Shown here: positions 1 through 17,875 of the stretch, in pieces | Position numbering within the stretch: position 1 is the first letter of the stretch | Layout: each line of letters begins with the position of its first letter | NCBI GenBank assembly: GCA_964389655.1 | Contig: CAYMED010000019.1 | Coordinates: forward strand, 1-43,396 | Source: an uncultured Candidatus Poseidoniales archaeon | GTDB lineage: Archaea > Thermoplasmatota > Poseidoniia > Poseidoniales > CAYMED01 | Length of the DNA: 43,396 nt | Reading direction: 5' to 3' | The notes under the pieces: generated by a model | What the model saw: only the letters and a program-made list of their open reading frames with translations | What the model was told of the DNA's origin: nothing | Database searches by the model: none | Position numbers and translations under genes: made by a program

Positions 1-123
1 TCATCGCCGCTCGAAGGTCAGAGGATTCGCAAACCTCTTCCATTTCCTCAGAACCGAAATTCCATCATTCACAATGGAAATACCCCTAACCACGACCATT
101 ACAGGGACGGCTTAAATTATGAA

Positions 124-549: not shown

Positions 550-582
550 AGTGCCACTAGATTCCCTCAATTAATAATATTT

Positions 583-590
583 TTTAAATA
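583..590 (+). promoter_or_regulatory. Probable archaeal TATA box (TTTAAATA) for a leaderless ZIP transcript, in an AT-rich divergent promoter region
   Basis: TTTAAATA lies at -30 to -23 relative to ATG 613, the spacing expected if transcription starts at or near the start codon. Confidence 0.55.
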
Positions 591-612
591 CATAATAATT
601 AAGTGGGCCGCT

Positions 613-1467: not shown

Positions 1468-1541
1468 GGGTATTTTCGCTGTCTGATGCTTGGCAAACCC
1501 ATCCACAAGAATGGAATACCACGCTGGTCTTTGCTCAAATT

Positions 1542-4500
1542 ATGAAGCGAGCACTTGCTGTTCTCTCTGCTGGTTTGATGTTGCTCCCCTTGCTCTACAT
1601 CGTCGTCGAAGAAGATTTCACACATGGGCAATCTCAGTTAATGCAAGATATTGAACAACAGACGAGCCTTGCAGAAATTTTCGAATGGAATCCTGATTGG
1701 GAAAATCAGACGGGGGAACATCTCGTTCGAGGTGACCCATGGGTACGTCCCCACCCCTATTCATCTAGTGCCGATGACCTAGATGGAGATGGGATTTCAA
1801 ATGAAAATGATACACATCCTTTCGACACATCAATGGGTGATTCTTCATTTGGCATATATTGCAATGGATTGCGAGACGACCTGTGCCATAGGAAGGAGCT
1901 TTTCACGATTCCAGTAAGTGACGGTGTCCATTTTGATGCGTCAGGCGATGAAATGGACATCGCTGACATCGATGGTGATGGTGATCTAGACCTTGGGATC
2001 CTAGACAACAAGATTTTCAAAATCTACTCAAATGTTGACGGAGAGTTTGTGGATGAATGGCATGCATTTCCTCTGCAACATGATGGAAAAGACTTGACAA
2101 TTGCAGACTTTAATGGAGATGGTGATGTTGATGCTCTCGTTCTCACAACCCATTCACTTGCGATGGTTGAGAATATCCTTGATCCAGCGTCTGCCCCCTC
2201 TGATGTCTTTTCAGCGTCTGTTTCTGGTGCGAATTGGAATGGTGGATCATTCGCAGAATTCGAAGTTGATGATATCAACAATGATGGATTTTTTGACGTC
2301 ATCATCGCCAAAAACCCCGGTACATTTCTACTAAATGGAACATCGACAGGGTTTGAAAGCACAGTGGGCTGGGATTCACTTTCACGTGCGCCGACCCAAA
2401 ATAGCAATTCAATTGCGATTGGAGATATGAATGGAGATGGGCTAAAGGATCTGATTCACTTAGGACATAGTCCCACAGCCCAAGAAGTTGCCATCTTCGA
2501 AAATACAGCTCAAGGATTGTCTTCCACTCCATCTTGGAGTAGCAGTACGAATGGCTATTATTACACCGTGGAAGTCGCAGACATTGATGGTGATGGAGAT
2601 TTGGATATTGCCGTAAAAGTGTCAGGTGACACACGCGTATATTTCAATGATGACCATAACGGAATCGAACCACGGTTTTGGGATTGCGATCCCCGATCCA
2701 CTCATTCAATTTGCAATTCTTGGGGCGATAATATCGCAGTTGGGGATATTGACATGGATGGGATGGATGACCTCTTGGTTGCAGGGAGGGATGTCGAAGA
2801 TGGCATCTTTTCAGGACATAATATCACTGATGAATTTCAAAATAGGTGGCTCGCTCATCCCCACAACGAAGTAGCAGAGATTGAAAATATTCCTTGGTCG
2901 AGTGGCTTAGTCATGGATACTAGTGATGTTGCGCTGGAAGATCTCGATGGAAATGGGGTATTGGATGCAATCCTGCTAAGTGAAAGCAAGGGTTTGTACA
3001 TTCACCACGGTCAACAAAATTCGATTTCAGAAACAGCCGGATGGGTTAGCGATTCATCTTCAACGACCGAAGATATTGTTATCAGTGATGTGAATGGAGA
3101 TGGAACACTTGATATTATCACATCAGGGACGCAACTCGATAATTTACGTGTGTACCGAAATACAAATGGGGTAATTATCCCCAGTAGCACAACACCAGCT
3201 GCTTGGAATTCGTTGATCGCAGAACCTAACCCTTCAGTCAATCCAAGTTCTGGTTCTGGAACACATGGCACAACAGTTGCAGATATGAATGGAAATGGAT
3301 GGACAGAAGTTCTCCAAAGTTTCGTTGTGTCCGGATCAGACGCGCGGATTCGCCTGCTCGAATATGACTCTGCATCTGAACCAGGATTCACATTTGTAAA
3401 ATTAGGAAATGATTTGAAACCAAGCAATCTCCATGATCCAGCATTCTCAAATGGAAAGTATCGGCCAACAAATACATTGGTTGCCATTGATATTGATGGG
3501 GATGGAAATGATGAAGTTGTTGCGGGATCGAATTCCATTGCAGCTGGGAACACACCAGGATATGTCATTGATTGGAATGCGACAAGTTCAGATTTAGAGA
3601 CAAATTTAACGATTCTTGACACACCCGGTACAGTGACGTTTGATTCGATTCTTTCTTTAGATTCAAACCAAGATGGAAAAGAAGATTTAGTTGCTATTGT
3701 GGATGGAAATCCGACTTTATTCAACAACACCGGTGGCTGGTTGAATGCATCATGGACGGTGTCCGGCACAAATCTTGTTGACATCAATAGCGCAGATATC
3801 AATCGAGATGGTTTTGCAGATCTAATCCTTATTCGAAATGGAAATACGATGGAAATTCACTTTGGCAGCGACGTGGGATTTTCCACAGTACCCGATCAAA
3901 CCCATGTATCTGGCACCTTTTTTTCTGGAATTGAAAAAACCGAATGGGCTGACATTAATTATGACGGCTATCCTGAAGCAATATTGGCGATTGATTCTAC
4001 CACAAGAGGGAATGTCGCATTGTGGAATAATGAAGGAAACATCACACCAATGGTCCTTTGGGAAAGCGAAAATCAACAAAGCACAATTGACATTGAAGTC
4101 GCTGATCTCAATGGTGATGGGGCAGTCGACGTGCTGACTGGAAATAGAAATTCAAACAATTATGTCTACTTCGGAATCCTTGAGATTGATGGGGATGGAA
4201 TTGACAATGATGATGACATATTCCCAACAGACCCGACGCAATCAGATGATGATGATAATGATGGGTTTGGAAATTCAGAGCGCGGGCGATATGGTGACAT
4301 ATGTGCAAACACATATGGCACATCATGGAGAGACCGCTTTGGATGCGCAGATGAAGACGAAGACGGGCAATCCAACCTAAATGATGATTTTTGGAATAAA
4401 ATGAGCCAATGGCTTGATACAGATGGTGATGGATATGGGGATAATTACGATGATGAAACAGGGCGCAAAGCTTGGTGGCCCGGTGAATACATCCCCGGTG

Positions 4501-6473
4501 CGGTCTTGAGTGATGAAAGTCCACTAGACCGGGATGATGACGGATATGAAGACCAAAGACTAGCAGTCAAGGGTGCAGTTGCGCCCTATGACCAATGCCC
4601 ATCTCGTTATGGGACCTCAGTTCACGATGTAATTGGCTGTCCGGACTCAGATGGTGATGGTATCTCTGACTTGCAAGATGCATTTCCAGGAGATCGAAGC
4701 CAATGGAATGACACGGATGATGATGGTTATGGGGATCAAAGCAATGGCTCATTTCCCGATGCTTGTCCCTTGGTGCATGGAACTTCAGATGATGATCGGT
4801 TTGGATGTCCTGACCGCGATGGTGATGGGTGGTCTGACCTTGCCGACGACCTCCCTGATGATCCAGAAGAACAAGTCGATTCAGACAATGATGGCGTGGG
4901 AGATGGGGAGGATGAATGTCCCTTCAACTCGGGAGCTTCGACTCTAGATTATGTGGGATGCCCCGATAAGGACGGCGATGGGCTTGCAGATATTGATGAT
5001 GTTTTCCCAAACGACAAAACTCAGCACTCAGATCGTGATGAAGATGGGTTTGGGGATAATGGAACACCTGGTGCAAACCAGCCAGATACCTGCCCTGATG
5101 CAGCGGGTGAGTCATTCAGAAATGGCATACTTGGCTGCCCAGACTCTGATGGGGATGGATTTGCAGACGATGATGACGAGTGTGAAGATTACTTTGGCAC
5201 TTCAACATTCCAAGAACTCCGTGGCTGTCCCGACCAAGATGGAGATGGGCTTCCTAATCATGATGGTGATGGGGAAGATGTGGATATTTATGCTGGAAAT
5301 GCGCATGGGGGGACGCCACATGATTGGGATGGTGATGGGGAAGATAACTTTGAAGATGATTTCCCAGCGGACCGCACACAATGGGCGGATTCTGATGGAG
5401 ATGGATATGGAGACAATTGGGACCCTGCAGTCCTTGGCATATCACTTGCAATTTATACGCTTGAACGCTCAGAGATCGGTGCGGATTGGCCAGGTGAGTA
5501 TGTAAAAAATGCAACAAATATTGATTGGTTCCCCGACGATGAAGATTCTTGGAGCGATAGTGATGGGGATTGGTTTACCGACCAAACAGGATTGGATCAC
5601 AGCGACGTCTGCCCATTCACCAAAGGAACAAGCGTTACCCCCTGGAAAGGGTGTGAAGATATCGATCATGATGGAATCATGGATCTCTCTGACACGGACG
5701 CCGATGGAGACGGGATTGCGAATTCATTAGAGGAAGCAGCAGCAGCAGCAGAAGGTACCACTTACGATATTTACAATGCCTCTTCTACTCCCCTTGACAC
5801 AGATGGGGATGGAACACCTGATTCAATTGATACTGACGATGACAACGATGATTTCCCAGATATTATGGAAAAAGAGAGAAAATCTGACCCACTTGATGCC
5901 AATGAGACACCACTTAATGTTCTAAAAATAGGAGGTCAGGAAACATCAGGGGTATATTTCATTCCAGGAAAAGGATTCTCATCACAATATGACCCTGATG
6001 GATATGAAATGAGTTTGTCAATGGCTTTGTCTCTCATCCAATCCGAATTGCTTATTCCGATCATGATTGCACCCCTTTCCCTTTGGGCTGTACTTCGAAA
6101 AGGAAGGCGCTTCCGACGCATAAGAAAGCGGCTAACACGAGTTGATGAAATGGAAGACCTCAATGAATATGAAAGCAAGATCGATCACTTGATTGAGAAA
6201 AACAAGGTAAAAATTCAACATGGGATGTTATTGAGGAACTTGTATGAACGTCGAAAGGAGGAGATGGAAGAGGCATATAGAACTCCCGAATCAACCGCTT
6301 GGCGGAAAGACGCAGAAACAAATCGAAAGACTCTCGCAGAAGCTGAACGCTCAATGACTGGACCTAGCATGTTCACACGTACAATCGAAGAAGAAAATGA
6401 GGAAGAACCCCCTTCATCGTCTCGAGGGGGAGTAAGTCGCCCTGGCGGAGGACCCCCTGGCGGATATTATTGA
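1542..6473 (+). CDS. Large membrane-anchored surface protein with FG-GAP/VCBS repeats and thrombospondin type 3-like Ca-binding repeats
   Basis: N-terminal hydrophobic segment from MKRALAVLS (ATG 1542); many ADIDGDGDLD-type repeats; then DxDGDG...CP...GCPD repeats; C-terminal TM, basic stretch and cytoplasmic tail. Confidence 0.88.
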   Translation: MKRALAVLSAGLMLLPLLYIVVEEDFTHGQSQLMQDIEQQTSLAEIFEWNPDWENQTGEHLVRGDPWVRPHPYSSSADDLDGDGISNENDTHPFDTSMGDSSFGIYCNGLRDDLCHRKELFTIPVSDGVHFDASGDEMDIADIDGDGDLDLGILDNKIFKIYSNVDGEFVDEWHAFPLQHDGKDLTIADFNGDGDVDALVLTTHSLAMVENILDPASAPSDVFSASVSGANWNGGSFAEFEVDDINNDGFFDVIIAKNPGTFLLNGTSTGFESTVGWDSLSRAPTQNSNSIAIGDMNGDGLKDLIHLGHSPTAQEVAIFENTAQGLSSTPSWSSSTNGYYYTVEVADIDGDGDLDIAVKVSGDTRVYFNDDHNGIEPRFWDCDPRSTHSICNSWGDNIAVGDIDMDGMDDLLVAGRDVEDGIFSGHNITDEFQNRWLAHPHNEVAEIENIPWSSGLVMDTSDVALEDLDGNGVLDAILLSESKGLYIHHGQQNSISETAGWVSDSSSTTEDIVISDVNGDGTLDIITSGTQLDNLRVYRNTNGVIIPSSTTPAAWNSLIAEPNPSVNPSSGSGTHGTTVADMNGNGWTEVLQSFVVSGSDARIRLLEYDSASEPGFTFVKLGNDLKPSNLHDPAFSNGKYRPTNTLVAIDIDGDGNDEVVAGSNSIAAGNTPGYVIDWNATSSDLETNLTILDTPGTVTFDSILSLDSNQDGKEDLVAIVDGNPTLFNNTGGWLNASWTVSGTNLVDINSADINRDGFADLILIRNGNTMEIHFGSDVGFSTVPDQTHVSGTFFSGIEKTEWADINYDGYPEAILAIDSTTRGNVALWNNEGNITPMVLWESENQQSTIDIEVADLNGDGAVDVLTGNRNSNNYVYFGILEIDGDGIDNDDDIFPTDPTQSDDDDNDGFGNSERGRYGDICANTYGTSWRDRFGCADEDEDGQSNLNDDFWNKMSQWLDTDGDGYGDNYDDETGRKAWWPGEYIPGAVLSDESPLDRDDDGYEDQRLAVKGAVAPYDQCPSRYGTSVHDVIGCPDSDGDGISDLQDAFPGDRSQWNDTDDDGYGDQSNGSFPDACPLVHGTSDDDRFGCPDRDGDGWSDLADDLPDDPEEQVDSDNDGVGDGEDECPFNSGASTLDYVGCPDKDGDGLADIDDVFPNDKTQHSDRDEDGFGDNGTPGANQPDTCPDAAGESFRNGILGCPDSDGDGFADDDDECEDYFGTSTFQELRGCPDQDGDGLPNHDGDGEDVDIYAGNAHGGTPHDWDGDGEDNFEDDFPADRTQWADSDGDGYGDNWDPAVLGISLAIYTLERSEIGADWPGEYVKNATNIDWFPDDEDSWSDSDGDWFTDQTGLDHSDVCPFTKGTSVTPWKGCEDIDHDGIMDLSDTDADGDGIANSLEEAAAAAEGTTYDIYNASSTPLDTDGDGTPDSIDTDDDNDDFPDIMEKERKSDPLDANETPLNVLKIGGQETSGVYFIPGKGFSSQYDPDGYEMSLSMALSLIQSELLIPIMIAPLSLWAVLRKGRRFRRIRKRLTRVDEMEDLNEYESKIDHLIEKNKVKIQHGMLLRNLYERRKEEMEEAYRTPESTAWRKDAETNRKTLAEAERSMTGPSMFTRTIEEENEEEPPSSSRGGVSRPGGGPPGGYY

Positions 6474-9268
6474 ACTTCAACCCGCTCTTCCAGAGTCGGG
6501 GGGTGGATGCCATCATCGGTGGCAACGAGGCTTGATGCACCATTTTGCCGAATCACTTCCGAATTCGTCCAATCATCAAATGGCATTTCATGTTTGGGAA
6601 GTGGCTGCTGAACAAATTCTGTTGTTGAAGAACTAGGGCGCAGAAAAATGGCCAACAAAAGAATTAGAACTGCAATGCCCAGAGTTGTTCCCAACCAAAT
6701 TATTGCCGGGTTTGACATGTCGAGCAAGGCAGAACCGGCCAACTTTGACGAAGTGCGTCCTGAAGGGGATTCACAACCATCAGGGATCGCATCCCGGTCT
6801 TGGTCGATTCGATCATCATGTCCCTCACAGGAATCATGTGAATTTGCGACCCCATCTCCGTCAGAATCAATCAAAGAATCACACCCATCCGATATTCGAT
6901 CAGAATCAGCATCTTCATTGTCGTCATAGCCCTCACAAACATCTTCTGAATTTGCGACCCCATCCCCATCAGAATCGACCAAATTATCACACCCGTCAGG
7001 GATCGAATCTTGATCCTCATCGATGGAATCGTTGTACCCTTCACAAATGTCATCTAGATCAGCTATGTGATCGCCATCCGAGTCGAGCAAGGAATCACAG
7101 GCATCTGGAATTTGATCGCGATCAACATCTATCTTATCATCTTCATTTTGACACAAATCTGCGACATCCGATACTCCATCCCCATCATCATCTCCATCCT
7201 CATCATCATGACACCCATCGTTATCAAAATCCGAGGCACTTGAATTCTTTACCCCAAGGGGACAATAGTCCTGTAAATCAGGTATTCCATCTCCATCATC
7301 ATCTTCATCAGAATCGTCGATGCATCCATCCGAATCATGATCAGGGCCAGAATTGTCGAATGGGCATGGGTCAATCGCGTCGTTCATCCCATCTGAATCA
7401 GAATCAAGTTGAGTAAGTGAGCACCCTTCTGCATTGACCGACTCATTATGTTTGGTGTTTTGGCACTTGTCTATGAGATTCCCCACACCATCTCCATCAT
7501 TGTCGATTAATGAATCACAACCATCGGGAAGACCATCTTGGTCCTGATCAACACGGTCATCATATCCTGCGCACAGGTCATTGACATCTAAAACTCCATC
7601 TCCATCATCATCTTGGTCCTCATCGTCATGACAACCATCCAAATCTCCATCTAGGGAATGCAAACCAATCATTCCTTTTGGGCAGAGGTCATTGACATCA
7701 GAGACCCCGTCATTATCGTCGTCATCATCAGAATCGTCGATGCATCCATCCGAATCGTGATCAGGGCCAGAATTATCCAATGGGCATGGGTCAATCGCGT
7801 CGTTCATCCCATCTGAATCCGAATCTCGTTGGGTTGGTGAACAACCATTTTCATCTGCAATTTCAGTAGCAGGAGTGTCTGTACAGTGATCTACGCCATT
7901 GGAGACCCCATCTCCATCCTCATCCAATTGTTCCCATGAACATCCATCTTGATTCACGGTGGAATTCATTGTCCAAGGGCATAGATCATTTGCATCTTCG
8001 ATTCCATCATTATCCGTATCTGGGGTCCCAATCAATGTTTGCACATATTTTCCGATAATCAAGTGCATGGAAGCAGTAGGGTGGGCTTTGTCAAAATATA
8101 GATACTCGTCAACATTGTTTGCCACTGTGTCTCCTGAATTGCAAATTGGCAAAGGAAGAATACTACCTGATGATGAACAAGCTGAATCTGCAGTATTTGT
8201 TATACCTAGGTGGGATGCGTTTCCAACAATCTCGTTGAATAAGGTATGAACATCGATATAATCAACGCGAATATTGAGGGCTGAAATTAGACCAGTTACC
8301 CCCGCATCAAGTTTGTTATTGTACTCAACTACACCTGCCGCCAACCGATTTTGTTCACTAACACTTCTTGAGGAACCTTCCGGAGTTTGTTCAAGAGGTG
8401 GTAGGTTCGCAATTAAGAACTTCTCAGCACCTGCACTAGCAAGTGCAGTGATGTGGGATATCATGTTTGAGGAGATTACATCAGGATCTCCCGAACCGTA
8501 AAGAAAGTCATTTCCACCCGCCCATAACACAACCAATTCATCTTGACCGAATGTTGCTTTAACATTCGAGATATAGGAATCGATTTGAGTGCCCACATTT
8601 GGCAAAAGTACGTAACTGTAACCTTGCCCGGTTTGTGAACCCCCGAAGGCACGATTATCCCCTGAATTGGTGCTGGAACCGTAGGTTGTATTAATTCCAT
8701 ATGCTTGTGATAAATGCTCAATCCATACTGGACCATTCGAAAACCGTCCATTCCAATAGGGGGGTGTATCTGGTACATTCAATATGCTACTTTTTGCATT
8801 TCCCATATCGGAAAGGCTGTCTCCAAATACTAGAATATCCGATATGGTTGGGAGTATATTTCTTCGTATAACTGTAAAGTTTGAAGTTGTTTCAGCGACT
8901 AAATTTTGGCTTGAATATAGTTCAACATTTGCTGTATAGTATTGGTTACCTGAGAAAAATGAATGCATGGTATAATTTTTGATAGTCTGAGTTTTTTGCT
9001 GATACCAAACATCTTCAATACGTGCAACTTCTCCAAATGCATCCTCTAGGATGATGGAAATATCCAATGTAGTGCCAAACTGCACTCCTTTGACAATGAC
9101 TTCAACAGATAACTTCTCATCTGAAAACAAGATGTATTGGTCGAGTCTTATTTCAGCAGATATGGCCCTTCCTTCTGATGCAGAAACCCTTTCTAATGCG
9201 CCAAGGAAAATAATCAGCAATACAATGACTGCATTGCGCACAGAAAAATACAGATGGCCACCATACAT
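6467..9268 (-). CDS. Secreted SGNH/GDSL lipase/acyltransferase with TSP3-like repeats and C-terminal membrane anchor
   Basis: FGDSLSDMGN (block I), GRFSNGPVW, WAGGND (block III), FDKAHPT (block V); signal peptide; many DxDGDG/DxCP repeats; TM near the C-terminus. Confidence 0.92.
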   Translation of the reverse strand: MYGGHLYFSVRNAVIVLLIIFLGALERVSASEGRAISAEIRLDQYILFSDEKLSVEVIVKGVQFGTTLDISIILEDAFGEVARIEDVWYQQKTQTIKNYTMHSFFSGNQYYTANVELYSSQNLVAETTSNFTVIRRNILPTISDILVFGDSLSDMGNAKSSILNVPDTPPYWNGRFSNGPVWIEHLSQAYGINTTYGSSTNSGDNRAFGGSQTGQGYSYVLLPNVGTQIDSYISNVKATFGQDELVVLWAGGNDFLYGSGDPDVISSNMISHITALASAGAEKFLIANLPPLEQTPEGSSRSVSEQNRLAAGVVEYNNKLDAGVTGLISALNIRVDYIDVHTLFNEIVGNASHLGITNTADSACSSSGSILPLPICNSGDTVANNVDEYLYFDKAHPTASMHLIIGKYVQTLIGTPDTDNDGIEDANDLCPWTMNSTVNQDGCSWEQLDEDGDGVSNGVDHCTDTPATEIADENGCSPTQRDSDSDGMNDAIDPCPLDNSGPDHDSDGCIDDSDDDDDNDGVSDVNDLCPKGMIGLHSLDGDLDGCHDDEDQDDDGDGVLDVNDLCAGYDDRVDQDQDGLPDGCDSLIDNDGDGVGNLIDKCQNTKHNESVNAEGCSLTQLDSDSDGMNDAIDPCPFDNSGPDHDSDGCIDDSDEDDDGDGIPDLQDYCPLGVKNSSASDFDNDGCHDDEDGDDDGDGVSDVADLCQNEDDKIDVDRDQIPDACDSLLDSDGDHIADLDDICEGYNDSIDEDQDSIPDGCDNLVDSDGDGVANSEDVCEGYDDNEDADSDRISDGCDSLIDSDGDGVANSHDSCEGHDDRIDQDRDAIPDGCESPSGRTSSKLAGSALLDMSNPAIIWLGTTLGIAVLILLLAIFLRPSSSTTEFVQQPLPKHEMPFDDWTNSEVIRQNGASSLVATDDGIHPPTLEERVEVQ
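7305..7825. repeat. Near-identical 101-bp direct repeat (7305-7405 and 7725-7825) inside the GDSL gene
   Basis: Direct comparison shows 4 mismatches in 101 bp at 420-bp spacing; both copies encode DSDSDGMNDAIDPCP(F/L)DNSGPDHDSDGCIDDSD. Confidence 0.95.
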
Positions 9269-9491
9269 GGTGATTTCGATCCGGGTATCAAAGACAATTT
9301 ACAGATAATCGTTGAGGAAAGCAGTATCTACCCCCCCATCATACAAGGTCCCGAAATCAGCATTTTCAGGCGATATTTGGGTGAATTTCCTTTCTGCTGG
9401 GAGAGACAATGAGTGCACGGTCTCCCCACCTTGTACTTGCAAATGGCCTGTTTTCGAATCACCCCACTCCGTTGCCACTAAGGTTTTCTTT

Positions 9492-9700
9492 CTATGGGGT
9501 GGGGGGTGAATCATAGCGTGATTTTTGTGGACGCACAAATATGATTAGAAGAAGAATTAGAATCAGCGTGCCCAAGGCAATTCCGCTCCAAACGACTGAA
9601 CGTTTTGAAAAATCAATCAAATTTGTGCTTGTAACCTCGGAAGATGGAGGGGAACAAATGGCTCACAAGCATCAGGGATTCCATCATGATCCTCTTCGAC
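9492..9700 (-). pseudogene. Frameshifted remnant paralogous to the 3' end (last TSP3 repeat plus TM anchor) of the neighbouring GDSL gene
   Basis: Minus strand reads EDHDGIPDACEP in one frame and SEVTSTNLIDFSKRSVVWSGIALGTLILILLLIIFVRPQKS in another, aligning to DRDAIPDGCES...ALLDMSNPAIIWLGTTLGIAVLILLLAIFLRPSSS of 6467..9268. Confidence 0.75.
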
Positions 9701-9770
9701 CCATCAAAAGGAACTGAATGCCTTTACTTGTCAAAGTTGTGAGTGGATGGATTCTAGTCAATGCCCAGAA

Positions 9771-10577
9771 TTATTCCTCCTGAGATCTTTTCACCGTATT
9801 TTTGCGTCGAAATTCAAGATATATGATCGCAGATAATCCCATAATACAAGCCCCCTCAATGGCCGTCAACCCAATGTATATGTCTCTCGGGGAACTACTC
9901 AATGTCCATCGTCGTGGTTTAAGACGCTCAGATAGAAGGCGCCATGCAAGATATGTTCCCATCCATACACGAAAGGAAAGTCCATCTCGCAATGGCCGGA
10001 CCCGATTCCATATCTCTGCCCCCATCAAAAATGTGATGAGCACTAGAATTTCGAGAATTCGAACTGGATGTCGAGATATCCCATCACCAAAATCAATTCC
10101 CCAAAACCAAGTGGTTGGGGCACCATGAGTCATGTCATCAAGACCAGATAAGACACACCCAATCCGGCCAATGATTATTCCAATCGTGAGTGGGAAAACT
10201 AGAGCATCGCCAGTTGAACGTGTTTCTCCGAGTTTCTTTTTTGTGATTTCTACAGCTATCCATCCTCCAAGAAGTCCACCGACCACAGTTCTACCTGAAA
10301 ACAATGACAGAATCTCGAGATTTTGTAATGCCTCAAGTGTGTTATGGGGGTGCTCAAAGAATGCAAGAAGATTAGCTCCTACAGCGGCACCAATTATTCC
10401 AGCCATCATACACAATTGACGTGTATCAAGGGGTATTGTATCGGAACGGTGTCGCCGAAGATAAAGAATTAATCCAAGTGTCGAGATTGCCCCAAGCATT
10501 TCGAATAATGGATGGGGATGGATTCGAAGAGGCCCAACCTCAATCCAGATCACTGGGTTAAGTGAGCTATTTATCAT
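9771..10577 (-). CDS. Prolipoprotein diacylglyceryl transferase (Lgt)-like membrane protein
   Basis: Lgt-style N-terminus (LNPVIWIEVGPLRIH), GRTVVGGLLGG, GIIIGRIGCVLSG, WGIDFGDGISRHPVRILE, YLAWRLLSERLK; about 7 TM helices. Confidence 0.85.
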   Translation of the reverse strand: MINSSLNPVIWIEVGPLRIHPHPLFEMLGAISTLGLILYLRRHRSDTIPLDTRQLCMMAGIIGAAVGANLLAFFEHPHNTLEALQNLEILSLFSGRTVVGGLLGGWIAVEITKKKLGETRSTGDALVFPLTIGIIIGRIGCVLSGLDDMTHGAPTTWFWGIDFGDGISRHPVRILEILVLITFLMGAEIWNRVRPLRDGLSFRVWMGTYLAWRLLSERLKPRRWTLSSSPRDIYIGLTAIEGACIMGLSAIIYLEFRRKNTVKRSQEE

Positions 10578-10630
10578 GAATGGAGCGAATCAATGTTAGC
10601 CTTCAAATTCTGTGGACACATCCCCAGTGT

Positions 10631-10978
10631 ATGGAACGTCCTTCTATTGAAATAATTGAACGACTCGAAGAGGGGCTCCGGCTCGTATGGTCTGACAAAA
10701 GTGAACATCAGGTTTCGTACAGAGAACTCCTTTTTTGGTGCCCTTGCGCAGGTTGTTCTCCTAAAAGAGATGATGAACAGATTGCAGAACAAATGTCCAA
10801 GGAGATTTCATCCTATGCAATTGCGAGGCCCGATATTGAAGCAACAGGGGGATATGCCATTCGCTTGAAGTGGGAAATTGGATGTAATAGCGGTATTTGG
10901 ACCTTTGACCGTCTATGGCGGCTGGCTATGGAAAAGGACCCTGATGAAGGAAAACCCTATGTCCACGGCGCATGGTAA
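10631..10978 (+). CDS. DUF971 / GBBH-like N-terminal domain protein
   Basis: LRLVWSD...CPCAGC...GGYAIRLKWEIGCNSGIWTFDRLW pattern. ATG 10631 preferred because 10580 would abut the divergent Lgt start. Confidence 0.8.
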   Translation: MERPSIEIIERLEEGLRLVWSDKSEHQVSYRELLFWCPCAGCSPKRDDEQIAEQMSKEISSYAIARPDIEATGGYAIRLKWEIGCNSGIWTFDRLWRLAMEKDPDEGKPYVHGAW

Positions 10979-11028
10979 TCCCCGCGCAATGGTGAAACGT
11001 CGTTGCCTGTTCGCAACACCATCCAAGT

Positions 11029-12618
11029 TTGGCTAGTTCCCACTTGGATGGAGGCGATGGCCTGATCGAAGAAGTGGAAGATGCTGAAGAGAGTTGGATG
11101 AAATTCTCTGAAGACGAACAACAAGTGGGTATTGACCTTTGGTCTGACCTCGTACCGGAAGATCAAATTGGTCAAGATTTTGACGAAGAATTTGAAATTG
11201 ATTTGGAGCCTCATTTGTTTGAAATTCCTTCAGCTCCAGCTCCAGCTGGATTATCGCATTTGGTTTCACTTGGGTTATGTGATTCCTGCCTTGGACGACT
11301 GGGTGGATTACAATCTGCAGGGGAGTCTCTAGGTGAGGCTGGTCTCAAAGTCCGATCAGAGGTTGAAAATAGAGACCCTGAATTGATTGTTGAGGGAGAA
11401 ACCGAAATTTGCCCATTGTGCGAGGGCCTTTTTGCAGATATTGAAATAGTCGGTGAAGAAATCCTGTCTTCGCTTTCAGATTTGGAGGTTGAGCGATTGC
11501 AAATCGGCCTACAACTTCCAGATGACCTTGTTGAAGATGACGAAGATGCACGAACCCGCATCGGAGCTCCGAGAAGTCCTGCACTAAAAGCTAGTTTGAC
11601 CGAGGCGATTGGAAATATTATCTGTGAAAATATGAAACATACTGAATTGGTAAACGACCATCCTGAAGTCGTCAGTTTAGTCGATTTGGTAACAATCAGT
11701 GTACGACTTGAAATTCGACCAGTTTACGTATACGGCCGCTATCTCAAACATGACAGGAACCTCCCACAAACAAGATGGCCTTGCCGTGCTTGTCGGGGTA
11801 GAAAAGGGGGATGTGATGCATGCCAAGGAACGGGCCTTCAATTTCCTGATTCCGTTCAAGATCTGATTGGCATGCCACTTGTTGAGGTATTTAATGGCGA
11901 AGATAATGCATTCCATGGTATGGGCCGTGAAGATCGAGATGTACGTTGTCTAGGCAAAGGGCGCCCCTTCGTTTGTGAGATCAAATCACCGAAAGCTAGG
12001 ACAATTGATTTTGCATCGGCAACCAAGAAAATTAATTCATCATCAGAGGGGAAAATAGAGATCTACTCATTGCGAGCATCGACCAAGCGAGAAGTTGTGC
12101 GAGTCAAAGACACTCCAGCGGAAAAAACCTATGAAATTGCGTTTAAAATGATTCATAGAGCACCATTTATCGATGAAAAGGCACTGGAGATTCCCGAAGG
12201 AAAACGTGGGCGCGGGCGCGGTAGGAGGAAAAAGAAGCCTCATTCAAATGATAAAGATGCGAAAGTGAAGGTAAATGAGGAAGGCCCTCTAGATGAAGAA
12301 AACCTCCTCGATGAATTGGATAATGAATCGATTCGAACAAGTATCGAATCAATTGGAGGCGTTACGCTTCGGCAACGAACTCCAGAGCGTGTGGCTCATC
12401 GGCGAGCAGACCGTGTCCGCGAACGGAAAATCATAAGCGCTACAGTTGAAAGAATTGAAGACGCGCTCATTGTAGCGCGCTTTCGAACCGAATCAGGCAC
12501 ATATGTAAAAGAACTCATTCATGGCGATGGTGGGCGAACACGACCTTCTTTAGCAGAAAAACTGGGCCGTGTGTGTGAGGTTGAGTGGCTTGACGTACTC
12601 GACATTCATGCAGATTAA
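11029..12618 (+). CDS. pus10: tRNA pseudouridine(54/55) synthase Pus10
   Basis: LCDSCLGR, CPLC, YGRYLKHDRNLPQTRWPC, FHGMGREDRDVRCLGKGRPF, QRTPERVAHRRADRVRER, GTYVKELIHGDGGRTRPSL. Start uncertain (11029 TTG or 11098 ATG). Confidence 0.95.
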   Translation: MASSHLDGGDGLIEEVEDAEESWMKFSEDEQQVGIDLWSDLVPEDQIGQDFDEEFEIDLEPHLFEIPSAPAPAGLSHLVSLGLCDSCLGRLGGLQSAGESLGEAGLKVRSEVENRDPELIVEGETEICPLCEGLFADIEIVGEEILSSLSDLEVERLQIGLQLPDDLVEDDEDARTRIGAPRSPALKASLTEAIGNIICENMKHTELVNDHPEVVSLVDLVTISVRLEIRPVYVYGRYLKHDRNLPQTRWPCRACRGRKGGCDACQGTGLQFPDSVQDLIGMPLVEVFNGEDNAFHGMGREDRDVRCLGKGRPFVCEIKSPKARTIDFASATKKINSSSEGKIEIYSLRASTKREVVRVKDTPAEKTYEIAFKMIHRAPFIDEKALEIPEGKRGRGRGRRKKKPHSNDKDAKVKVNEEGPLDEENLLDELDNESIRTSIESIGGVTLRQRTPERVAHRRADRVRERKIISATVERIEDALIVARFRTESGTYVKELIHGDGGRTRPSLAEKLGRVCEVEWLDVLDIHAD

Positions 12619-12681
12619 TTTTGATTCGATCAGTTCATAAGAACTGGGCCGGTGGCGCGGTCCCTTCAGGAGGGATTTCTC

Positions 12682-12969
12682 ATGCGTCGAAGCCACGGGC
12701 AGCGTCAAGGAACTCGCTCAATTCTACGTAAGCGCTCTCGTTTACGAGGGCGTGTTCAAATTCGCAGGGTCATGCATGCTTACGATGTAGGTGATCAAGT
12801 CTCAATTGTGCTCGATGGTGCACAGCCAAAAGGAATGCCACACCGTAGATTCCATGGATTGACTGGAAGTATTGTTGGGAAACAAGGACGCGCTTGGGTT
12901 ATTTCTGTTAAAGATGGAAATATGGATAAGTCTGTCGTAGCTAGACCAGAACATCTGCGTCCACAATAA
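12682..12969 (+). CDS. rpl21e: 50S ribosomal protein L21e
   Basis: MRRSHGQRQGTRSILRK...GMPHRRFHGLTG...VARPEHLR; GGAGG upstream of ATG 12682; follows pus10. Confidence 0.96.
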   Translation: MRRSHGQRQGTRSILRKRSRLRGRVQIRRVMHAYDVGDQVSIVLDGAQPKGMPHRRFHGLTGSIVGKQGRAWVISVKDGNMDKSVVARPEHLRPQ

Positions 12970-12986
12970 AAAGTGAGGGTGAAAAC

Positions 12987-13355
12987 ATGGCAGAGGATAC
13001 ATCAAACAGATATGTGGGTCCCGGAACAGTACGTGATCGACTAATCGATGCGCAAAAGCGAAGAGGAGACCTTTCTTTCATGCAAAAAGTAACTTTGTAT
13101 CAAGTTGAATGGGCAGCTAGTGACCAACGCATGGGTTACAAAGCTTCACCTGAGGTTTTTGATTCACTTTACGAACGTTTCATTGGAATGGAGAAACTCG
13201 AGAAGAACCCTGAGGTCGCCGCAAAGTTGGCTGAAATACTTCCACTTTCAAGTGATGATATCCGTGCGATTCTTGCAACTCGCCGTGTATCAATGTCGGG
13301 CGATGAAATTGAACAGGTTTTGGAAGCAATAGCTCAAGAAATTGGTGTGGAATAA
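12987..13355 (+). CDS. rpoF: DNA-directed RNA polymerase subunit F (Rpo4/Rpb4 family)
   Basis: Size and pattern (LSFMQK...AAKLAEILPLSSDDIRAIL...EIEQVLEAI) and the conserved archaeal position between rpl21e and DUF655. Confidence 0.85.
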   Translation: MAEDTSNRYVGPGTVRDRLIDAQKRRGDLSFMQKVTLYQVEWAASDQRMGYKASPEVFDSLYERFIGMEKLEKNPEVAAKLAEILPLSSDDIRAILATRRVSMSGDEIEQVLEAIAQEIGVE

Positions 13356-13387
13356 GAATAAGAAAATAACCCCAAGGGGGGACTTCA

Positions 13388-13945
13388 ATGACATTGATGG
13401 ATGGATGGGAGGCTGAGCCTTGGTCAGTAGAAACAAAGGCGTTCGTAATTGAGCAACCTCTCGGAACTGGAATTATTGAAGTTTTGACCGAAAATGGGCT
13501 TTGGATGTTACGTGCTCGTGCATCAATAAGTGCGGGAACCTTTTCCTCGGGCGATGAAATAAATTTGGACGGTACAGATTCCCGAATAGATAGGATCCTT
13601 GGAACTCTTGACCCTTCTGCTTTAGGACATAGGGCTATAACTGATTTGACGGAAGTGATTGCGACTTTGATACGCAAAAACCCTGAGGCCCATTTGAGTT
13701 TTTTTCGACGGGCCGGCCCCATGTCTCTCAAAATGCATTCTTTTGAACTTCTTGCGGGAATTGGTCCTTCTGCTGCCCTTCGAATGCAGGATGCACGTTC
13801 AGTACATGAATGGTCTACATTCGAGAAGATTGACTCGAGCTCTGGTATCGATTCAGTTCAATTGTTGGCTGGGCGCTATGGTGAGGAATTGCTCGACATC
13901 GAAATTCAGCCGCGCTTAGTTGATCTGTTGTTACGATCCTCATAA
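13388..13945 (+). CDS. DUF655 family putative RNA-binding protein
   Basis: FFRRAGPMSLKMHSFELLAGIG HhH-like motif; conserved synteny rpoF-DUF655-rsmA. Confidence 0.85.
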   Translation: MTLMDGWEAEPWSVETKAFVIEQPLGTGIIEVLTENGLWMLRARASISAGTFSSGDEINLDGTDSRIDRILGTLDPSALGHRAITDLTEVIATLIRKNPEAHLSFFRRAGPMSLKMHSFELLAGIGPSAALRMQDARSVHEWSTFEKIDSSSGIDSVQLLAGRYGEELLDIEIQPRLVDLLLRSS

Positions 13946-13959
13946 CATGTATACCTTTG

Positions 13960-14922
13960 ATGCGAACAAGGGCCTCCGGATCTATGCTTCCGATGGAGCC
14001 AGCCCCTCTTATCGCAGCACTCCGGCAACGACTACGACCGTCCAAGGACCTTGGTCAGCATTTTCTAACGGACCCTCAAATCCTTAGCCAAGCTTGTGAT
14101 AACGCCGGATTGCCTCAGTATGATGAGAATCATGATGGATTCAAAGTTCTTGAAATTGGAGCGGGCCCAGGTGTCCTTTCGACTCACATAATCTCTAGAT
14201 CTCAACACCTAACAGCAATTGAGGTTGACCCGTTCGCAATATCGCACCTTGAAACGCTATTTTCAGAATACATCAGTTGTGGGAAATTAAAAATCGTTGC
14301 AGGAGATGCCTTGCGCGTGAAATGGCCGGAGGCCATCAACAAGATTATTGCAAATATACCCTATGGAATTACGAGCCCACTTCTTGGAAGAATTGATGAA
14401 CATTATGGGGTGCTTTCGAATAATTCGAACCGACCTACATGTCTACTTTTGATCCAAAAGGAAGTCGCTGACCGACTTAGCAAAAAAGCAGTATCAAAAT
14501 CAAGATCCTCTCTCGCAATGACGCTACGGCTTGGATGGGATGTCGAATGCCTTGACAAAGTCAGCAAGACCAAATTTGACCCACAGCCCGCAGTCGATGG
14601 CCGTTTCATTCGCCTTTCACCAATCGAAAATAGAGCTGGGAATTCGACAATCCGACTTGCCAAACGCTTGATTCGTTCAGGATATTCCATGAGGCGAAAG
14701 CGGCTTTCAAATGCCCTTCGTCAGCGGCCTCCTCGGCATCTTAATCGCATAGAGGGATGGGATACACGTGATTGGCAAACGATTCTTACACGTGCTATGG
14801 AGGGTGATGAAGAACGTCTATCCCTGCGTGCTGAAGTGCTATCATGTGAGGATTGGATCGAATTATCATCATACTTTGAAAAGGTCAAATCCTTGCTTAA
14901 TGATGAACCGACAGTTACATGA
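13960..14922 (+). CDS. rsmA: 16S rRNA (adenine-N6,N6)-dimethyltransferase RsmA/KsgA
   Basis: PSKDLGQHFL, VLEIGAGPGVLS, IIANIPYGITSPLL, IQKEVADRL, FDPQPAVD, RRKRLSNAL. Start may be a few codons downstream. Confidence 0.95.
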   Translation: MRTRASGSMLPMEPAPLIAALRQRLRPSKDLGQHFLTDPQILSQACDNAGLPQYDENHDGFKVLEIGAGPGVLSTHIISRSQHLTAIEVDPFAISHLETLFSEYISCGKLKIVAGDALRVKWPEAINKIIANIPYGITSPLLGRIDEHYGVLSNNSNRPTCLLLIQKEVADRLSKKAVSKSRSSLAMTLRLGWDVECLDKVSKTKFDPQPAVDGRFIRLSPIENRAGNSTIRLAKRLIRSGYSMRRKRLSNALRQRPPRHLNRIEGWDTRDWQTILTRAMEGDEERLSLRAEVLSCEDWIELSSYFEKVKSLLNDEPTVT

Positions 14923-14978
14923 TTGGACATAAGGTTCAACCGAGGAGGCTGGTTCGGCCCTTTTCGGGAAGGGATGTA

Positions 14979-16061
14979 ATGGCCAAGAAGGACACCTTTC
15001 TAGCACTCGTTCGAAGAGGTATTGACGAGGCAACTGCGACCCATCTTGCAGAAGCAGGAGTTAAAATAGGTGACTTGAAAAAGATCGGACAGGAACAACT
15101 TCAGCAAAATTATGGTCTCAAGGCAAAAGTTGCAGAATCAGTCATCAATGCAATTCGAAGTGGCCCAACAGCAACAAGCCGTCAACGATATCTCTCTGGA
15201 ATTCTCGCTGAAAAGAAAAAGAAGGGGAAAGTTGAGGAAGTACGTTGGAAAAGAGAACAAAAAAGCCATCTTTCTAAACTTCAAGAAGAGCGCGAGCGCC
15301 TCAGACAGGCCCGGGTAGATCAATTTCGATCTCACAAACTTATCATGAACCGACTTGGCAAAACAATCGATCTAATTGTCAAACTTGAGAATAATTTTGA
15401 TGACGAAGGGAAAGACGATCAACGTGCAAAATTACGTGATCAATTAGAAACACGTGGACTTGAAGCAGCGCGCGACCATGAAGCCCTAAACCTCCCCGGT
15501 GTTCCCCAAGATATCGCCGACTTCCGCCGCAAGACCGTCCCAGTTCGCTGTTTTCATGCGTGCCCTGAATGTGGGGATGAAATCAACCCCACGTCGGGAC
15601 TCAGCACAGATGACCCTGATGATTGGAGTATTATGTGCTGGGATTGTGAGCACGAAGTTCGTTCAACTCTTTGTGACAGAGTTGAAGAATTGCTTGTGAA
15701 CGGCGAGCGCATCAAGATAGAAGGCAAGATAAAACCACGAAATGAAGTTCCATTACGTCCACTCGCCCCGATACAATCTGTGGATGAATTGATCGCAGAT
15801 GACCTCAAACGCACTGGTGCAACAGCAGACCATATCGCCGAAGCTGCGAAGGCATCTGATCTTGCAGGTGGGTTGATGGATATTATGGAATGGATTGACC
15901 AAACCATTGCTGCTAAAGGATATATTCAATCTCAGGAAGATCGTGACGATTTCATCTTAAGAACTGGTGCTGGTGCAACTAAGTTCAATAAATGGATGAA
16001 GAAGGCGGGACTTGTCTTCAATAAGCAAACAGGCCGCTGGACGCGATATGAAGGCCTATGA
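14979..16061 (+). CDS. Uncharacterised protein with N-terminal HhH-like segment, coiled coil and Zn-ribbon
   Basis: Long clean ORF from MAKKDTF; RGIDEATATHLAEAG...YGLKAKVAESVINA; CPECG...CWDC; stop overlaps the next start. Confidence 0.75.
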   Translation: MAKKDTFLALVRRGIDEATATHLAEAGVKIGDLKKIGQEQLQQNYGLKAKVAESVINAIRSGPTATSRQRYLSGILAEKKKKGKVEEVRWKREQKSHLSKLQEERERLRQARVDQFRSHKLIMNRLGKTIDLIVKLENNFDDEGKDDQRAKLRDQLETRGLEAARDHEALNLPGVPQDIADFRRKTVPVRCFHACPECGDEINPTSGLSTDDPDDWSIMCWDCEHEVRSTLCDRVEELLVNGERIKIEGKIKPRNEVPLRPLAPIQSVDELIADDLKRTGATADHIAEAAKASDLAGGLMDIMEWIDQTIAAKGYIQSQEDRDDFILRTGAGATKFNKWMKKAGLVFNKQTGRWTRYEGL

Positions 16062-17875
16062 GTGAATCGCTTGATTCATTGGTGTGTGCTGATTCGATGA
16101 CTCTTGTGCAGACCGCCTCTCCCCATCCTTTGAAACGGCTGATAAATCATGCGAAGCCACATAGGAGTACACTTCGAAGAGCAACTTTTTGTTCGATTAT
16201 GAATAAAATTTTCGATCTTGCACCCCCTCTTCTCATTGGGGCTGCTGTTGATGTGGTCGTAACTCGAGAGAATTCTCTTATCGCACGATCTGGGTTCACG
16301 GATCCCTTTCACCAGTTACTTATTCTTGCGGCTTTAACTATCCTTGTTTGGTCAGGCGAATCCTTGTTCCAATATTTGTATGGGGTCCTTTGGCGTTCAT
16401 TGGCCCAGGCAGTTGAGCATGACTTACGAATTGAGGCTTGGAGACATGTGCAGGACCTAGAAGTTGCGTGGTTTAGCCAACGGCCGAAGGGTGAAATCAT
16501 GTCTATTTTAGTTGATGATGTCAATCAGCTTGAGAGATTTCTAGATGTGGGTGCAAATGACCTTCTTCAAATTGCTACGACAGTTGTGATTGTTGGGACA
16601 ATATTCATGGTTCTTTCGTGGCCTGTAGCCCTACTTGCCTTTCTCCCCATTCCTGTTATTTTATGGGGTTCTTTCCGATTCCAAAGAAAAATAGGACCAA
16701 AATATGATGAGATGCGTGCCGAAGTAGGACGCTTGAATGCCCTTGTAGAAAATGATTTAACAGGGATTGAAACAATCAAGTCCTTCACTGCCGAAGAGCG
16801 CGAAGCAGAGCGCCTTCAAGACGCCTCAACTCGATACCGGGAGGCGAATGAACGCGCAATCCGAATCTCTGCAGCTTTTGTTCCTCTAATCCGTATGGCT
16901 ATTCTACTCGGATTTTGTGCCACCCTTCTTTTGGGCGGCTGGTTTACACTTCAAGAAGTTCTATCTGTCGGTGCCTACAGCGTTCTCGTCTTTTTGACAC
17001 AGCGGCTTTTGTGGCCATTAACTCGTCTCGGTGAGACTTTTGACCTGTACCAGCGCGCAATGTCTTCTTCCACGCGCATTCTAGATTTAATCGATACACC
17101 AATTGACGTAGAAGATGGGGTGCATGTGTGCCTAGATGAGGAAGCCCGTCAATCGATTTCATTTCATAAAATTATTTTTGGATATCCAAACCGAGAACGC
17201 GTGTTTGAAGAACTCGATTTAACGGTAAATGCAGGATCTACACTTGGGCTTGTTGGACCAACCGGCGCTGGAAAAACGACACTTGTTGCATTGCTTTTGA
17301 GATTCTTTGATCCTGAACGCGGCCGTGTTAGCATTGGCGAACATGATGTGCGTGAATTAACTCTCGAAAGTCTACGCAGATCCATAGCATTGGTGAGCCA
17401 GCACACTCTTCTTTTCCCTACGACAATTGAGGAAAACATCCGCTATGGTCGTCCCGACGCGACTGATGAAGATGTCTTGGCCGCAGCTGAGACGGCTGAA
17501 GCAACAGAATTCATTGAACGCCTTCCTAAGGGGATGAAAACCGAAGTTGGGGAAGGGGGGAAAAAGCTCTCTGGAGGTCAAGCACAACGCATCTCAATTG
17601 CGCGTGCCGTCCTCAAAGATGCGCCCATTTTAATTCTTGATGAGGCTACAAGTTCGGTTGATAATGAAACTGAAGCAGCATTACAACGCTCCCTGAGGCG
17701 GTTGCAAGAAGGGCGAACATCATTCATAATCGCGCATCGCCTTTCCACTCTCCGAGATGCTGACCGAATTGTTGTAATTGACGGCGGAAAAATCATTGAA
17801 GATGGGACGCACTCAGAACTTGTCACCTTGAAGGGGCTATATGCCGACCTTTGGTCGGTTCAAACGGGATCATGA
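16058..17875 (+). CDS. ABC exporter, fused permease/ATP-binding (MdlB/MsbA-like)
   Basis: TM domain followed by Walker A GPTGAGKT, signature LSGGQ, Walker B ILILDEATS, IAHRL. Confidence 0.95.
   Translation: MSESLDSLVCADSMTLVQTASPHPLKRLINHAKPHRSTLRRATFCSIMNKIFDLAPPLLIGAAVDVVVTRENSLIARSGFTDPFHQLLILAALTILVWSGESLFQYLYGVLWRSLAQAVEHDLRIEAWRHVQDLEVAWFSQRPKGEIMSILVDDVNQLERFLDVGANDLLQIATTVVIVGTIFMVLSWPVALLAFLPIPVILWGSFRFQRKIGPKYDEMRAEVGRLNALVENDLTGIETIKSFTAEEREAERLQDASTRYREANERAIRISAAFVPLIRMAILLGFCATLLLGGWFTLQEVLSVGAYSVLVFLTQRLLWPLTRLGETFDLYQRAMSSSTRILDLIDTPIDVEDGVHVCLDEEARQSISFHKIIFGYPNRERVFEELDLTVNAGSTLGLVGPTGAGKTTLVALLLRFFDPERGRVSIGEHDVRELTLESLRRSIALVSQHTLLFPTTIEENIRYGRPDATDEDVLAAAETAEATEFIERLPKGMKTEVGEGGKKLSGGQAQRISIARAVLKDAPILILDEATSSVDNETEAALQRSLRRLQEGRTSFIIAHRLSTLRDADRIVVIDGGKIIEDGTHSELVTLKGLYADLWSVQTGS

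Follow-up and report, generated by a model that had tools for sequence, protein, structure and literature searches.

An Lgt-like gene in a Poseidoniales genome

The stretch of DNA analyzed here (the window; 43,396 nucleotides) belongs to contig CAYMED010000019.1 (C19) in the genome assembly of an uncultured Candidatus Poseidoniales archaeon (GCA_964389655.1, here G000). It carries a gene related to that of prolipoprotein diacylglyceryl transferase (Lgt). The open reading frame (ORF; Table 1) is intact and starts with ATG. A gene for a GDSL lipase lies on one side of it, and on the other side begins a conserved flank whose first gene encodes a DUF971 protein.

In a Pfam search the protein matched PF01790 (LGT) over residues 11-223 with 60.7 bits, against a gathering score of 24.9, and no other family, so that PF01889/DUF63 is also unmatched. 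Its scores with models of canonical Lgt are low: 28.6 bits against a cut-off of 118.9 for the TIGR00544 lgt equivalog, and 34 bits against cut-offs of 334-558 for the best NCBIfam lgt model (a test at the level of PRK00052). NCBIfam, when searched, held no model specific to the subfamily to which the protein belongs. A sequence search of the PDB returned nothing at E<=1, and a fold search was required: an AlphaFold2 model of the protein (predicted local distance difference test score, pLDDT, 87; predicted template modeling score, pTM, 0.86) matches a single PDB entry significantly, 5AZB, the structure of E. coli Lgt (E 1.8e-5, TM 0.58). The protein is a PF01790 member with the Lgt fold, but it is not a canonical Lgt.

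A first-pass annotation of the window had recognized the Lgt motifs GRIG, RHP..LE and R...E in this gene, had noted GRIGCV in place of canonical GRLGNF and GRTVVGG in place of GGMSFHGG, with loss of the His, and had proposed the PF01790 search whose score is given above. These observations hold. All of the motifs are present in the translation (GRTVVGG at residues 95-101, GRIGCV at 137-142, RHPVRILE at 169-176 and R213...E217), and alignment to E. coli Lgt puts V99 at H103 and C141 at N146.

Public annotations sometimes start the ORF at Met57, giving 212 residues and losing a conserved N-terminal helix with H22; because the family alignment supports the longer form, we favor the 268-residue start. 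The order GDSL, Lgt-like, DUF971, Pus10 recurs on contigs from other samples and assemblies. In one contig of about 4x depth, obtained in another study (run X5), position 10340 is followed by an additional G that would frameshift the Lgt-like gene; this may be an assembly error or a disrupted allele of another population.

Active-site residues in comparison with E. coli Lgt

Residues were mapped by profile alignment (hhalign, probability 98.2) of the subfamily to E. coli Lgt. The subfamily alignment (A1) comprised 26 sequences, i.e., the window protein and 25 relatives, and a larger alignment comprised 110. Three positions of the E. coli enzyme are replaced, Y26 by H22, H103 by V99 and N146 by C141, and these three residues are invariant in all 26 sequences of A1. 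In addition, E151 corresponds to L146 and R246 to K220, and G154 stands opposite a gap. Retained positions include D129 (D124 in the window protein), G142-R143 (G137-R138), the equivalent of G145, R195-H196-P197 (R169-H170-P171), E202 (E176), Y235 (Y209), R239 (R213) and E243 (E217). The Lgt signature G142-R-L-G-N-F-I-N-G-E-L-W-G-R reads G-R-I-G-C-V-L-S-G-L-D-D.

E. coli Lgt has an absolute requirement for six residues, Y26, H103, R143, N146, G154 and R239 (PMC13251419). Two of them, R143 and R239, are retained in the window protein; three are changed and G154 is gapped. Since R138 and R213 align with R143 and R239, the arginines that bind the lipid phosphate are kept. The protein therefore shares with E. 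coli Lgt (5AZB/5AZC; PF01790; TIGR00544) its Pfam family and multi-pass fold, but differs from it in a much shorter head domain, with E151 and G154 unmatched, in being tied to a radical S-adenosylmethionine (SAM) partner, described below, and in lacking the phyletic pattern of lipoproteins. A bacterial protein, the second Lgt homolog of Mycolicibacterium smegmatis (MSMEG_5408), is reported to share two of the replacements, Y26H and N146C, and low Lgt activity is presumed for it (PMC13251419; discussion in PMC12462473), which also speaks against a general Lgt role of the window protein.

A radical SAM partner

The nearest relatives of the window protein, 40-47% identical to it, are proteins of about 250 residues annotated as 'prolipoprotein diacylglyceryl transferase family'. 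They come from Paenibacillus, Neobacillus, Longimicrobium, Hymenobacter, cyanobacteria and many metagenomes, and the subfamily is mostly bacterial. The window protein conforms to the subfamily signature, which consists of a length of about 250 residues, invariant residues at two positions (His for Y26, Cys for N146) and the motifs GKTIVGG, STGD and DFGDG..RHP.

In Neobacillus, Hymenobacter and a metagenome contig, the gene directly downstream of the Lgt-like gene encodes a radical SAM protein of about 470 residues (PF23545 and PF04055), whose PF23545 zinc ribbon we take to mark the MJ0619/Tes superfamily. We surveyed 29 Poseidoniales loci together with 80 from species-representative genomes, 109 in all. 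A radical SAM gene lies within 4 kb of the Lgt-like gene and on the same strand in 100 of them, and follows it directly in all 29 of the Poseidoniales loci, which are from genomes other than G000. A natural fusion, P0176 (733 residues), unites LGT, Zn_ribbon_HMPTM and Radical_SAM in one chain, with the radical SAM part attached at the C-terminus of the Lgt-like domain; in Lgt, the C-terminal end is on the cytoplasmic side. In Poseidoniales the co-occurrence extends to whole genomes: every radical SAM-bearing genome (33 of 401 sampled) also has the Lgt-like gene, so that the pair is present in about 8% of these genomes. Adjacency, co-occurrence and fusion together show that the pairing is obligate.

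The nine loci with no radical SAM gene within 4 kb are mostly cyanobacterial. At the cyanobacterial loci L069, L072, L076, L089, L096 and L105, no Tes-like radical SAM gene was found within 4 kb of the Lgt-like gene, and unlinked arrangements such as that of G000 may thus occur in bacteria too.

The partner scores below both relevant NCBIfam equivalog cut-offs, with 264-298 bits against 450 for Tes and 296-338 bits against 490 for TrsS (264 with the Tes model NF045702 and 296 with TrsS for the G000 protein), and is therefore neither Tes nor TrsS. In common with Tes/GDGT-MAS (MJ0619; NF045702), the synthase of glycerol dialkyl glycerol tetraethers (GDGT), it has a PF23545 zinc ribbon at the N-terminus and a radical SAM core. 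Unlike Tes, it co-occurs with an Lgt-like gene in aerobic bacteria; to our knowledge, these are not known as tetraether makers. Literature searches found no published function for TrsS and no publication describing the pairing of an Lgt-like protein with a Tes-like radical SAM protein, or a module containing both.

The first-pass annotation had placed similar bacterial Lgt paralogs next to radical SAM genes, which proved right, and had remarked that none is adjacent here. That remark was accurate as well: a gene scan found no radical SAM gene in the window, and none lies directly downstream of the Lgt-like gene. The sole PF23545 radical SAM gene of G000 is at C43:2410-3921(-), on a contig of 5.3 kb (C43), and its product shares 57% identity with the partner from Neobacillus. 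This protein sits within a Poseidoniales-only set (support 99) of the radical SAM tree, so that C43 is not a bacterial contaminant. G000 therefore possesses both genes of the pair. The C43 protein keeps 135 of 152 highly conserved positions, including every conserved Cys, and of 41 positions with a conservation of at least 93% among its 109 relatives, the Lgt-like protein keeps 35.

Occurrence in Poseidoniales

PF01790 proteins were detected in 36 of the 401 Poseidoniales genomes and are concentrated in a few genera (14/22 genomes in g14, 4/5 in g4, 5/7 in g26 and 6/35 in g13). Three of the 36 lack the radical SAM gene: in G122 the locus is at a contig end, in G216 the match is weak and riddled with stops, and in G390 the protein is a canonical Lgt. 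The latter (contig C42, L008; 217 bits) is the sole canonical Lgt in the 401 genomes and was rejected, as it has a classic bacterial lgt-thyA-folA-TauE context and 33% GC; it is very likely a bacterial contaminant.

In the tree of Lgt-like proteins, the 36 Poseidoniales entries form one clade that is nested among bacterial groups, with the window protein at its base. The window contig itself is archaeal (Poseidoniales/Marine Group II, MG-II), as the genes on the right-hand side of the Lgt-like gene include Pus10 with an archaeal THUMP domain, L21e, DUF655 and KsgA. The first-pass annotation had called for the distribution of the gene across the order, which proves to be patchy and to track the radical SAM gene almost perfectly. 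Of its two readings, that of a divergent Lgt paralog acquired horizontally and acting on another substrate agrees with a non-canonical, mostly bacterial subfamily that occurs in this order as a single nested clade.

A third gene with a C-proximal cysteine

The gene that usually comes after the radical SAM gene encodes a small membrane protein in which a single Cys near the C-terminus is conserved. Most of 13 larger Poseidoniales loci have, right after the radical SAM gene, a gene for a membrane protein of 167-373 residues, in which an acidic and often EF-hand-like N-terminus precedes a C-terminal helical hairpin that ends in LFGFC, LFGLC, FFGC or IFAC; the Cys lies 10-16 residues before the C-terminus. 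The bacterial counterparts have 86-92 residues and end in FSAC, FGAC or NGGC.

When a hidden Markov model (HMM) built on the C-terminal domain encoded by the third genes of Poseidoniales was searched against all 16,195 ORFs of G000, a single match was obtained, C2:134655-135059(-), with a modest E of 8.8e-6 (0.84 for the next best). This ORF adjoins ftsZ and encodes 134 residues with an N-terminal CPHC...CPFC zinc ribbon. On the basis of this match, we regard it as a candidate for the third module gene.

A further gene was observed next to the partner. Directly upstream of the C43 radical SAM gene, where the Lgt-like gene normally lies, is a gene for the alpha subunit of a Rieske/ring-hydroxylating oxygenase (L162:3973-5100, minus). 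A homolog with 60% identity (L050:2071-2559) follows the third gene in G207, which has the next-basal Poseidoniales cassette, and no homolog was found in the remaining cassette loci. The Rieske protein may be an extra module component in the G000 and G207 lineages.

Lipobox proteins and AliA

Four lipobox-like leaders had been listed for the window in the first-pass annotation (FSGC, FSGC, SAGC and, as a possible case, VAAC), and all four are real (Table 1). They are among about 30 convincing lipobox ORFs in G000, and in its other reading the Lgt-like gene was a candidate archaeal lipid transferase for such proteins. An archaeal enzyme of this kind would modify the N-terminal lipobox Cys of many exported proteins of this cell. 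The family and fold of the protein, its equivalents of R143, R239, Y235 and E243, and the abundance of lipobox ORFs in G000, four of them in the window, are what one would expect of it, and an overlooked case is conceivable since surveys call Lgt absent from archaea (PMC13251419, PMC12462473). Against it stand the residues discussed above, as three of the six required ones are changed (Y26H, H103V, N146C) and G154 has no counterpart.

Lipoproteins are lipidated in Haloferax volcanii by AliA and AliB (arCOG02177/02178; HVO_2859/HVO_2611; PMC12462473); Hong et al. gave the name AliA to HVO_2859 (PMC12462473), a protein whose annotation places it in the DUF63 family (PMC9426492). Like Lgt, AliA and AliB are membrane enzymes that have two conserved arginines and are proposed to attach a glycerolipid to Cys as a thioether (PMC12462473). 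However, they constitute a family (PF01889/DUF63) different from that of the Lgt-like protein, and one that is near-universal in the order where the Lgt-like gene is patchy: PF01889 was found in 120 of 121 sampled genomes. The DUF63 gene of G000 is on contig C1 and encodes 442 residues (PF01889, 125 bits); no NCBIfam model matched this protein.

Nor does the Lgt-like gene accompany lipobox proteins in every genome that makes them. Both it and the radical SAM gene are missing from G003, a complete genome in a single contig, yet the first 381 kb of G003 contain nine lipobox ORFs with the same ...(A/S)GC(F/L)G motif, and per Mb G003 has as many lipobox ORFs as G000. In the same-genus genome G001, whose site syntenic to the window lacks the Lgt-like gene, the ortholog of the window's YHYH-domain lipoprotein nevertheless keeps LSGC, and the ortholog in G014 has no lipobox though that genome bears the cassette. 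With DUF63 in nearly all sampled genomes and lipobox proteins in a cassette-free one, a general lipoprotein role of the Lgt-like gene is not supported, and it is very unlikely that the gene matures the ordinary lipoproteins of the cell. The first-pass annotation had itself named a patchy distribution nested within a bacterial non-canonical clade, together with a lack of transferase activity, as evidence that would speak against lipoprotein maturation, and the distribution and phylogeny are of exactly this form; coupled with the radical SAM gene as it is, and found in 36 genomes of 401 while AliA is almost everywhere, the gene has only a very slight chance of being an archaeal lipobox transferase.

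The YHYH protein showed an additional feature. Among its orthologs (L140-L154), the lipobox (FSGC or LSGC) occurs only in this genus, i.e., in G000 and G001. The N-terminus in 13 other genomes (12 of other genera, and G014), which include the other two families, is a Cys-less hydrophobic anchor. Within the order, one and the same protein is thus anchored by a lipid in some genomes and by a signal-anchor helix in others.

A cassette probably split by a genomic island

The module is dispersed in G000, and comparison with G001 suggests how this came about. Contig C26 of G001 is collinear at the protein level with 10580..17875 of the window, from DUF971 through Pus10, L21e, DUF655 and KsgA to an ABC transporter. 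Directly beside DUF971, C26 has two YbjQ-type genes; no Lgt-like, GDSL or radical SAM gene is present at this site, and the genes of window positions 1..10577 have no match on C26. Because of this synteny, the absence of the Lgt-like gene is real at the syntenic site and not an assembly gap. A DNA search with window positions 8800-12700 gave no match in G001, the synteny being visible only between proteins, and the flanks of the window show no synteny with the other 29 Poseidoniales cassette loci.

Table 1. Features of the window discussed in the text
Feature	Position	Strand	Details
Lgt-like membrane transferase gene	9771..10577	minus	268 aa, PF01790; first gene of the module
Right-hand part of the island missing from the G001 syntenic site	1..10579		NikR, ZIP transporter, FG-GAP giant protein and a GDSL lipase containing TSP3 repeats; its right edge is occupied by the Lgt-like gene
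DUF971/GBBH-like_N gene	10580..10978	plus	First gene of the conserved flank and synteny boundary, outside the module; PF06155 48.6 bits; G001 C26 ortholog 49% identity
Lipobox signal peptide (…AAFSGC) of YHYH-domain protein	19990..20049	minus	In ORF 17860..20049; outside the module
Lipobox leader (…PSFSGC) of BNR-repeat protein	32677..32790	minus	In ORF 31288..32790; context
Lipobox leader (…LSAGC) of TSP3-repeat protein	37504..37569	minus	In ORF 34909..37569; context
Lipobox leader (…SVAAC) of membrane-anchored M24 peptidase	38683..38811	minus	In ORF 37720..38811; context

In G000, the best matches of the two YbjQ-type genes of G001 are C43:227-598 and C43:611-1084. C43 and the window therefore lie at the two sides of one island that G001 lacks, whose left edge, with the radical SAM gene, is on C43 and whose right edge, with the Lgt-like gene, is in the window. 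In the orientation that the two contigs share, both genes are on the minus strand with the Lgt-like gene upstream, which is the order of intact cassettes. The right end of C43 overlaps the right end of another contig, C29 (17.6 kb), by exactly 55 nt, so that the island probably includes C29. No exact end overlap joins C19 to C29 or C43, and the 569 nt that other assemblies add to the left of the window, which encode a TSP3-repeat surface protein, match no G000 contig; the island is thus not closed. All public assemblies break in this TSP3-repeat surface-protein gene at the left end of the window. As the simplest history we infer that an intact cassette was later split by an insertion of surface-protein genes of at least 11 kb, and probably at least 29 kb.

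The island is rich in giant surface proteins with TSP3 (DxDxDG) repeats and C-terminal anchors (6467..9268, 1..570 and L185:2-658); they comprise the FG-GAP protein, the GDSL lipase and the protein encoded to the left of the window. A 42-residue ORF, 9492..9620(-), lies immediately downstream of the Lgt-like gene and encodes a single hydrophobic helix (…IALGTLILILLLIIFVRP…) with no Cys. This helix closely resembles the C-terminal anchors of neighboring surface proteins, such as that of the GDSL protein (…IAVLILLLAIFLRP), and the ORF may be the remnant of a displaced gene end. On the other side, the ATG of the Lgt-like gene (10577, minus) and that of the DUF971 gene (10580, plus) are divergent and 2 bp apart, which leaves no intergenic space for a promoter; public gene calls for the DUF971 start differ (115 versus 132 residues).

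Such an arrangement raises the question of whether the Lgt-like gene of G000, once separated from its partner by the island, is drifting or has acquired a new task, e.g., with the GDSL lipase. The gene has the longest terminal branch of its tree, Y175L and four other changes at highly conserved positions, and a start codon 2 bp from a divergent gene with no promoter space, and a 1-bp insertion after 10340 was seen in one low-depth contig of another study. Its frame, however, is intact and retains H22, D124, R138, C141, D148, D165, R169, H170, Y209, R213 and K220; identical sequence was recovered in several samples and assemblies; the partner radical SAM gene is intact, with all Cys ligands present; and a GDSL gene is found beside the Lgt-like gene in no other locus. 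We consider a decaying or repurposed remnant improbable.

Proposed function of the module

On balance, the window gene probably encodes a membrane enzyme of the Lgt family that is non-canonical and serves a dedicated three-part module, and that is not a general prolipoprotein transferase. The proposed parts are the Lgt-like protein, the cytoplasmic radical SAM protein of the Tes/GDGT-MAS superfamily (C43) and a small membrane protein with a C-proximal Cys (candidate on C2). In this module, R138 and R213 would bind the phosphate of a membrane glycerolipid, and the Lgt-like enzyme would take the lipid-glyceryl group of a membrane phospholipid and transfer it to a thiol, for which the Cys of the small membrane protein is the likeliest candidate. 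The radical SAM partner would form a C-C bond at the unactivated ends of lipid tails, and the product would be a membrane protein or lipid that is specially lipidated or tail-linked. Lipidation of the ordinary lipobox proteins would most likely fall to the AliA-family (DUF63) enzyme encoded on C1.

Several findings weigh against this proposal. Activities are putative for all members of the subfamily and the module, and both acceptor and chemistry are inferred. The C2 candidate is a modest match with a poor lipobox, LLVC, and a zinc ribbon not seen in other third genes. The Lgt-like gene, the radical SAM gene and the third-gene candidate are unlinked in G000, so that their working together there is a proposal. 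The Poseidoniales clade of Lgt-like proteins has a support of only 88 in the Shimodaira-Hasegawa-like approximate likelihood ratio test (SH-aLRT), in a tree rooted on one very long outgroup branch, and the G000 proteins have long terminal branches (1.34 versus a median of 0.16 for the Lgt-like protein, 0.75 versus a median of 0.12 for the radical SAM protein). Finally, the G000 Lgt-like copy has Y175L at a near-invariant position, a substitution that could reflect relaxed or changed constraint.

The main rival of the three-part module is a pathway that involves lipids only. The Lgt-like protein might bind a glycerolipid and hand it to the radical SAM protein, or move lipid-glyceryl to another lipid or a small thiol, and together the two would produce a lipid with linked tails (macrocyclic or membrane-spanning) or with some other modification, the Cys protein being accessory or unrelated. 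The partner does belong to the tetraether-synthase superfamily (Tes 264 bits, TrsS 296 bits), Tes acts on lipids alone (PMC8941075, PMC9433317), and the lipid-phosphate-binding arginines of Lgt are retained. The third gene is highly variable, from 86 to 373 residues with differing N-terminal domains, and in G000 it was not found beside the radical SAM gene. On the other hand, a C-proximal Cys after small or hydrophobic residues recurs in the gene behind the radical SAM gene in both Poseidoniales and bacteria, the chemistry of Lgt is thiol alkylation, true Tes requires no Lgt-like partner (PMC8941075), and the radical SAM protein scores under both equivalog cut-offs. We judge a lipid-only role unlikely and continue to favor the module with a protein thiol as the acceptor.

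Implications

Homologs of Lgt in PF01790 have been stated to be absent from archaea (PMC13251419, PMC12462473). Since about 9% of the sampled Poseidoniales species genomes carry PF01790, that statement needs qualifying, with the addition that these proteins are not lipoprotein Lgts. The findings also bear on tetraether lipids. Among 231 MG-II metagenome-assembled genomes, Zeng et al. found just one with a 'Tes homolog' (28% identity) and concluded that MG-II lack Tes (PMC8941075); that homolog is probably a radical SAM partner of the kind seen here. Distinguishing the partner from Tes guards against inferring GDGT synthesis in MG-II, and this bears on the TEX86 proxy.

What is added here is the dispersed arrangement of the module, the evidence from the island and its synteny, and an explicit test against AliA and the distribution of lipobox proteins. 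G000 shows that the module genes can be separated by an island and yet remain intact. The uncharacterized module is present in hundreds of bacterial species, among them members of Bacillota, Cyanobacteriota, Acidobacteriota, Bacteroidota, Planctomycetota and other phyla, and would couple thiol-lipidation chemistry with tail-welding radical chemistry. More tentatively, and with considerable doubt on our part, module-bearing Poseidoniales, G000 with its dispersed genes included, may possess a second route of protein lipidation beside AliA, in which the Lgt-derived enzyme thioether-links a membrane glycerolipid to the Cys in the C-terminal helix of a dedicated membrane protein and the lipid tails are then welded by the Tes-like radical SAM protein. 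If true, the product would be a covalently lipid-stapled membrane protein, of a kind that has not been described in any domain of life.

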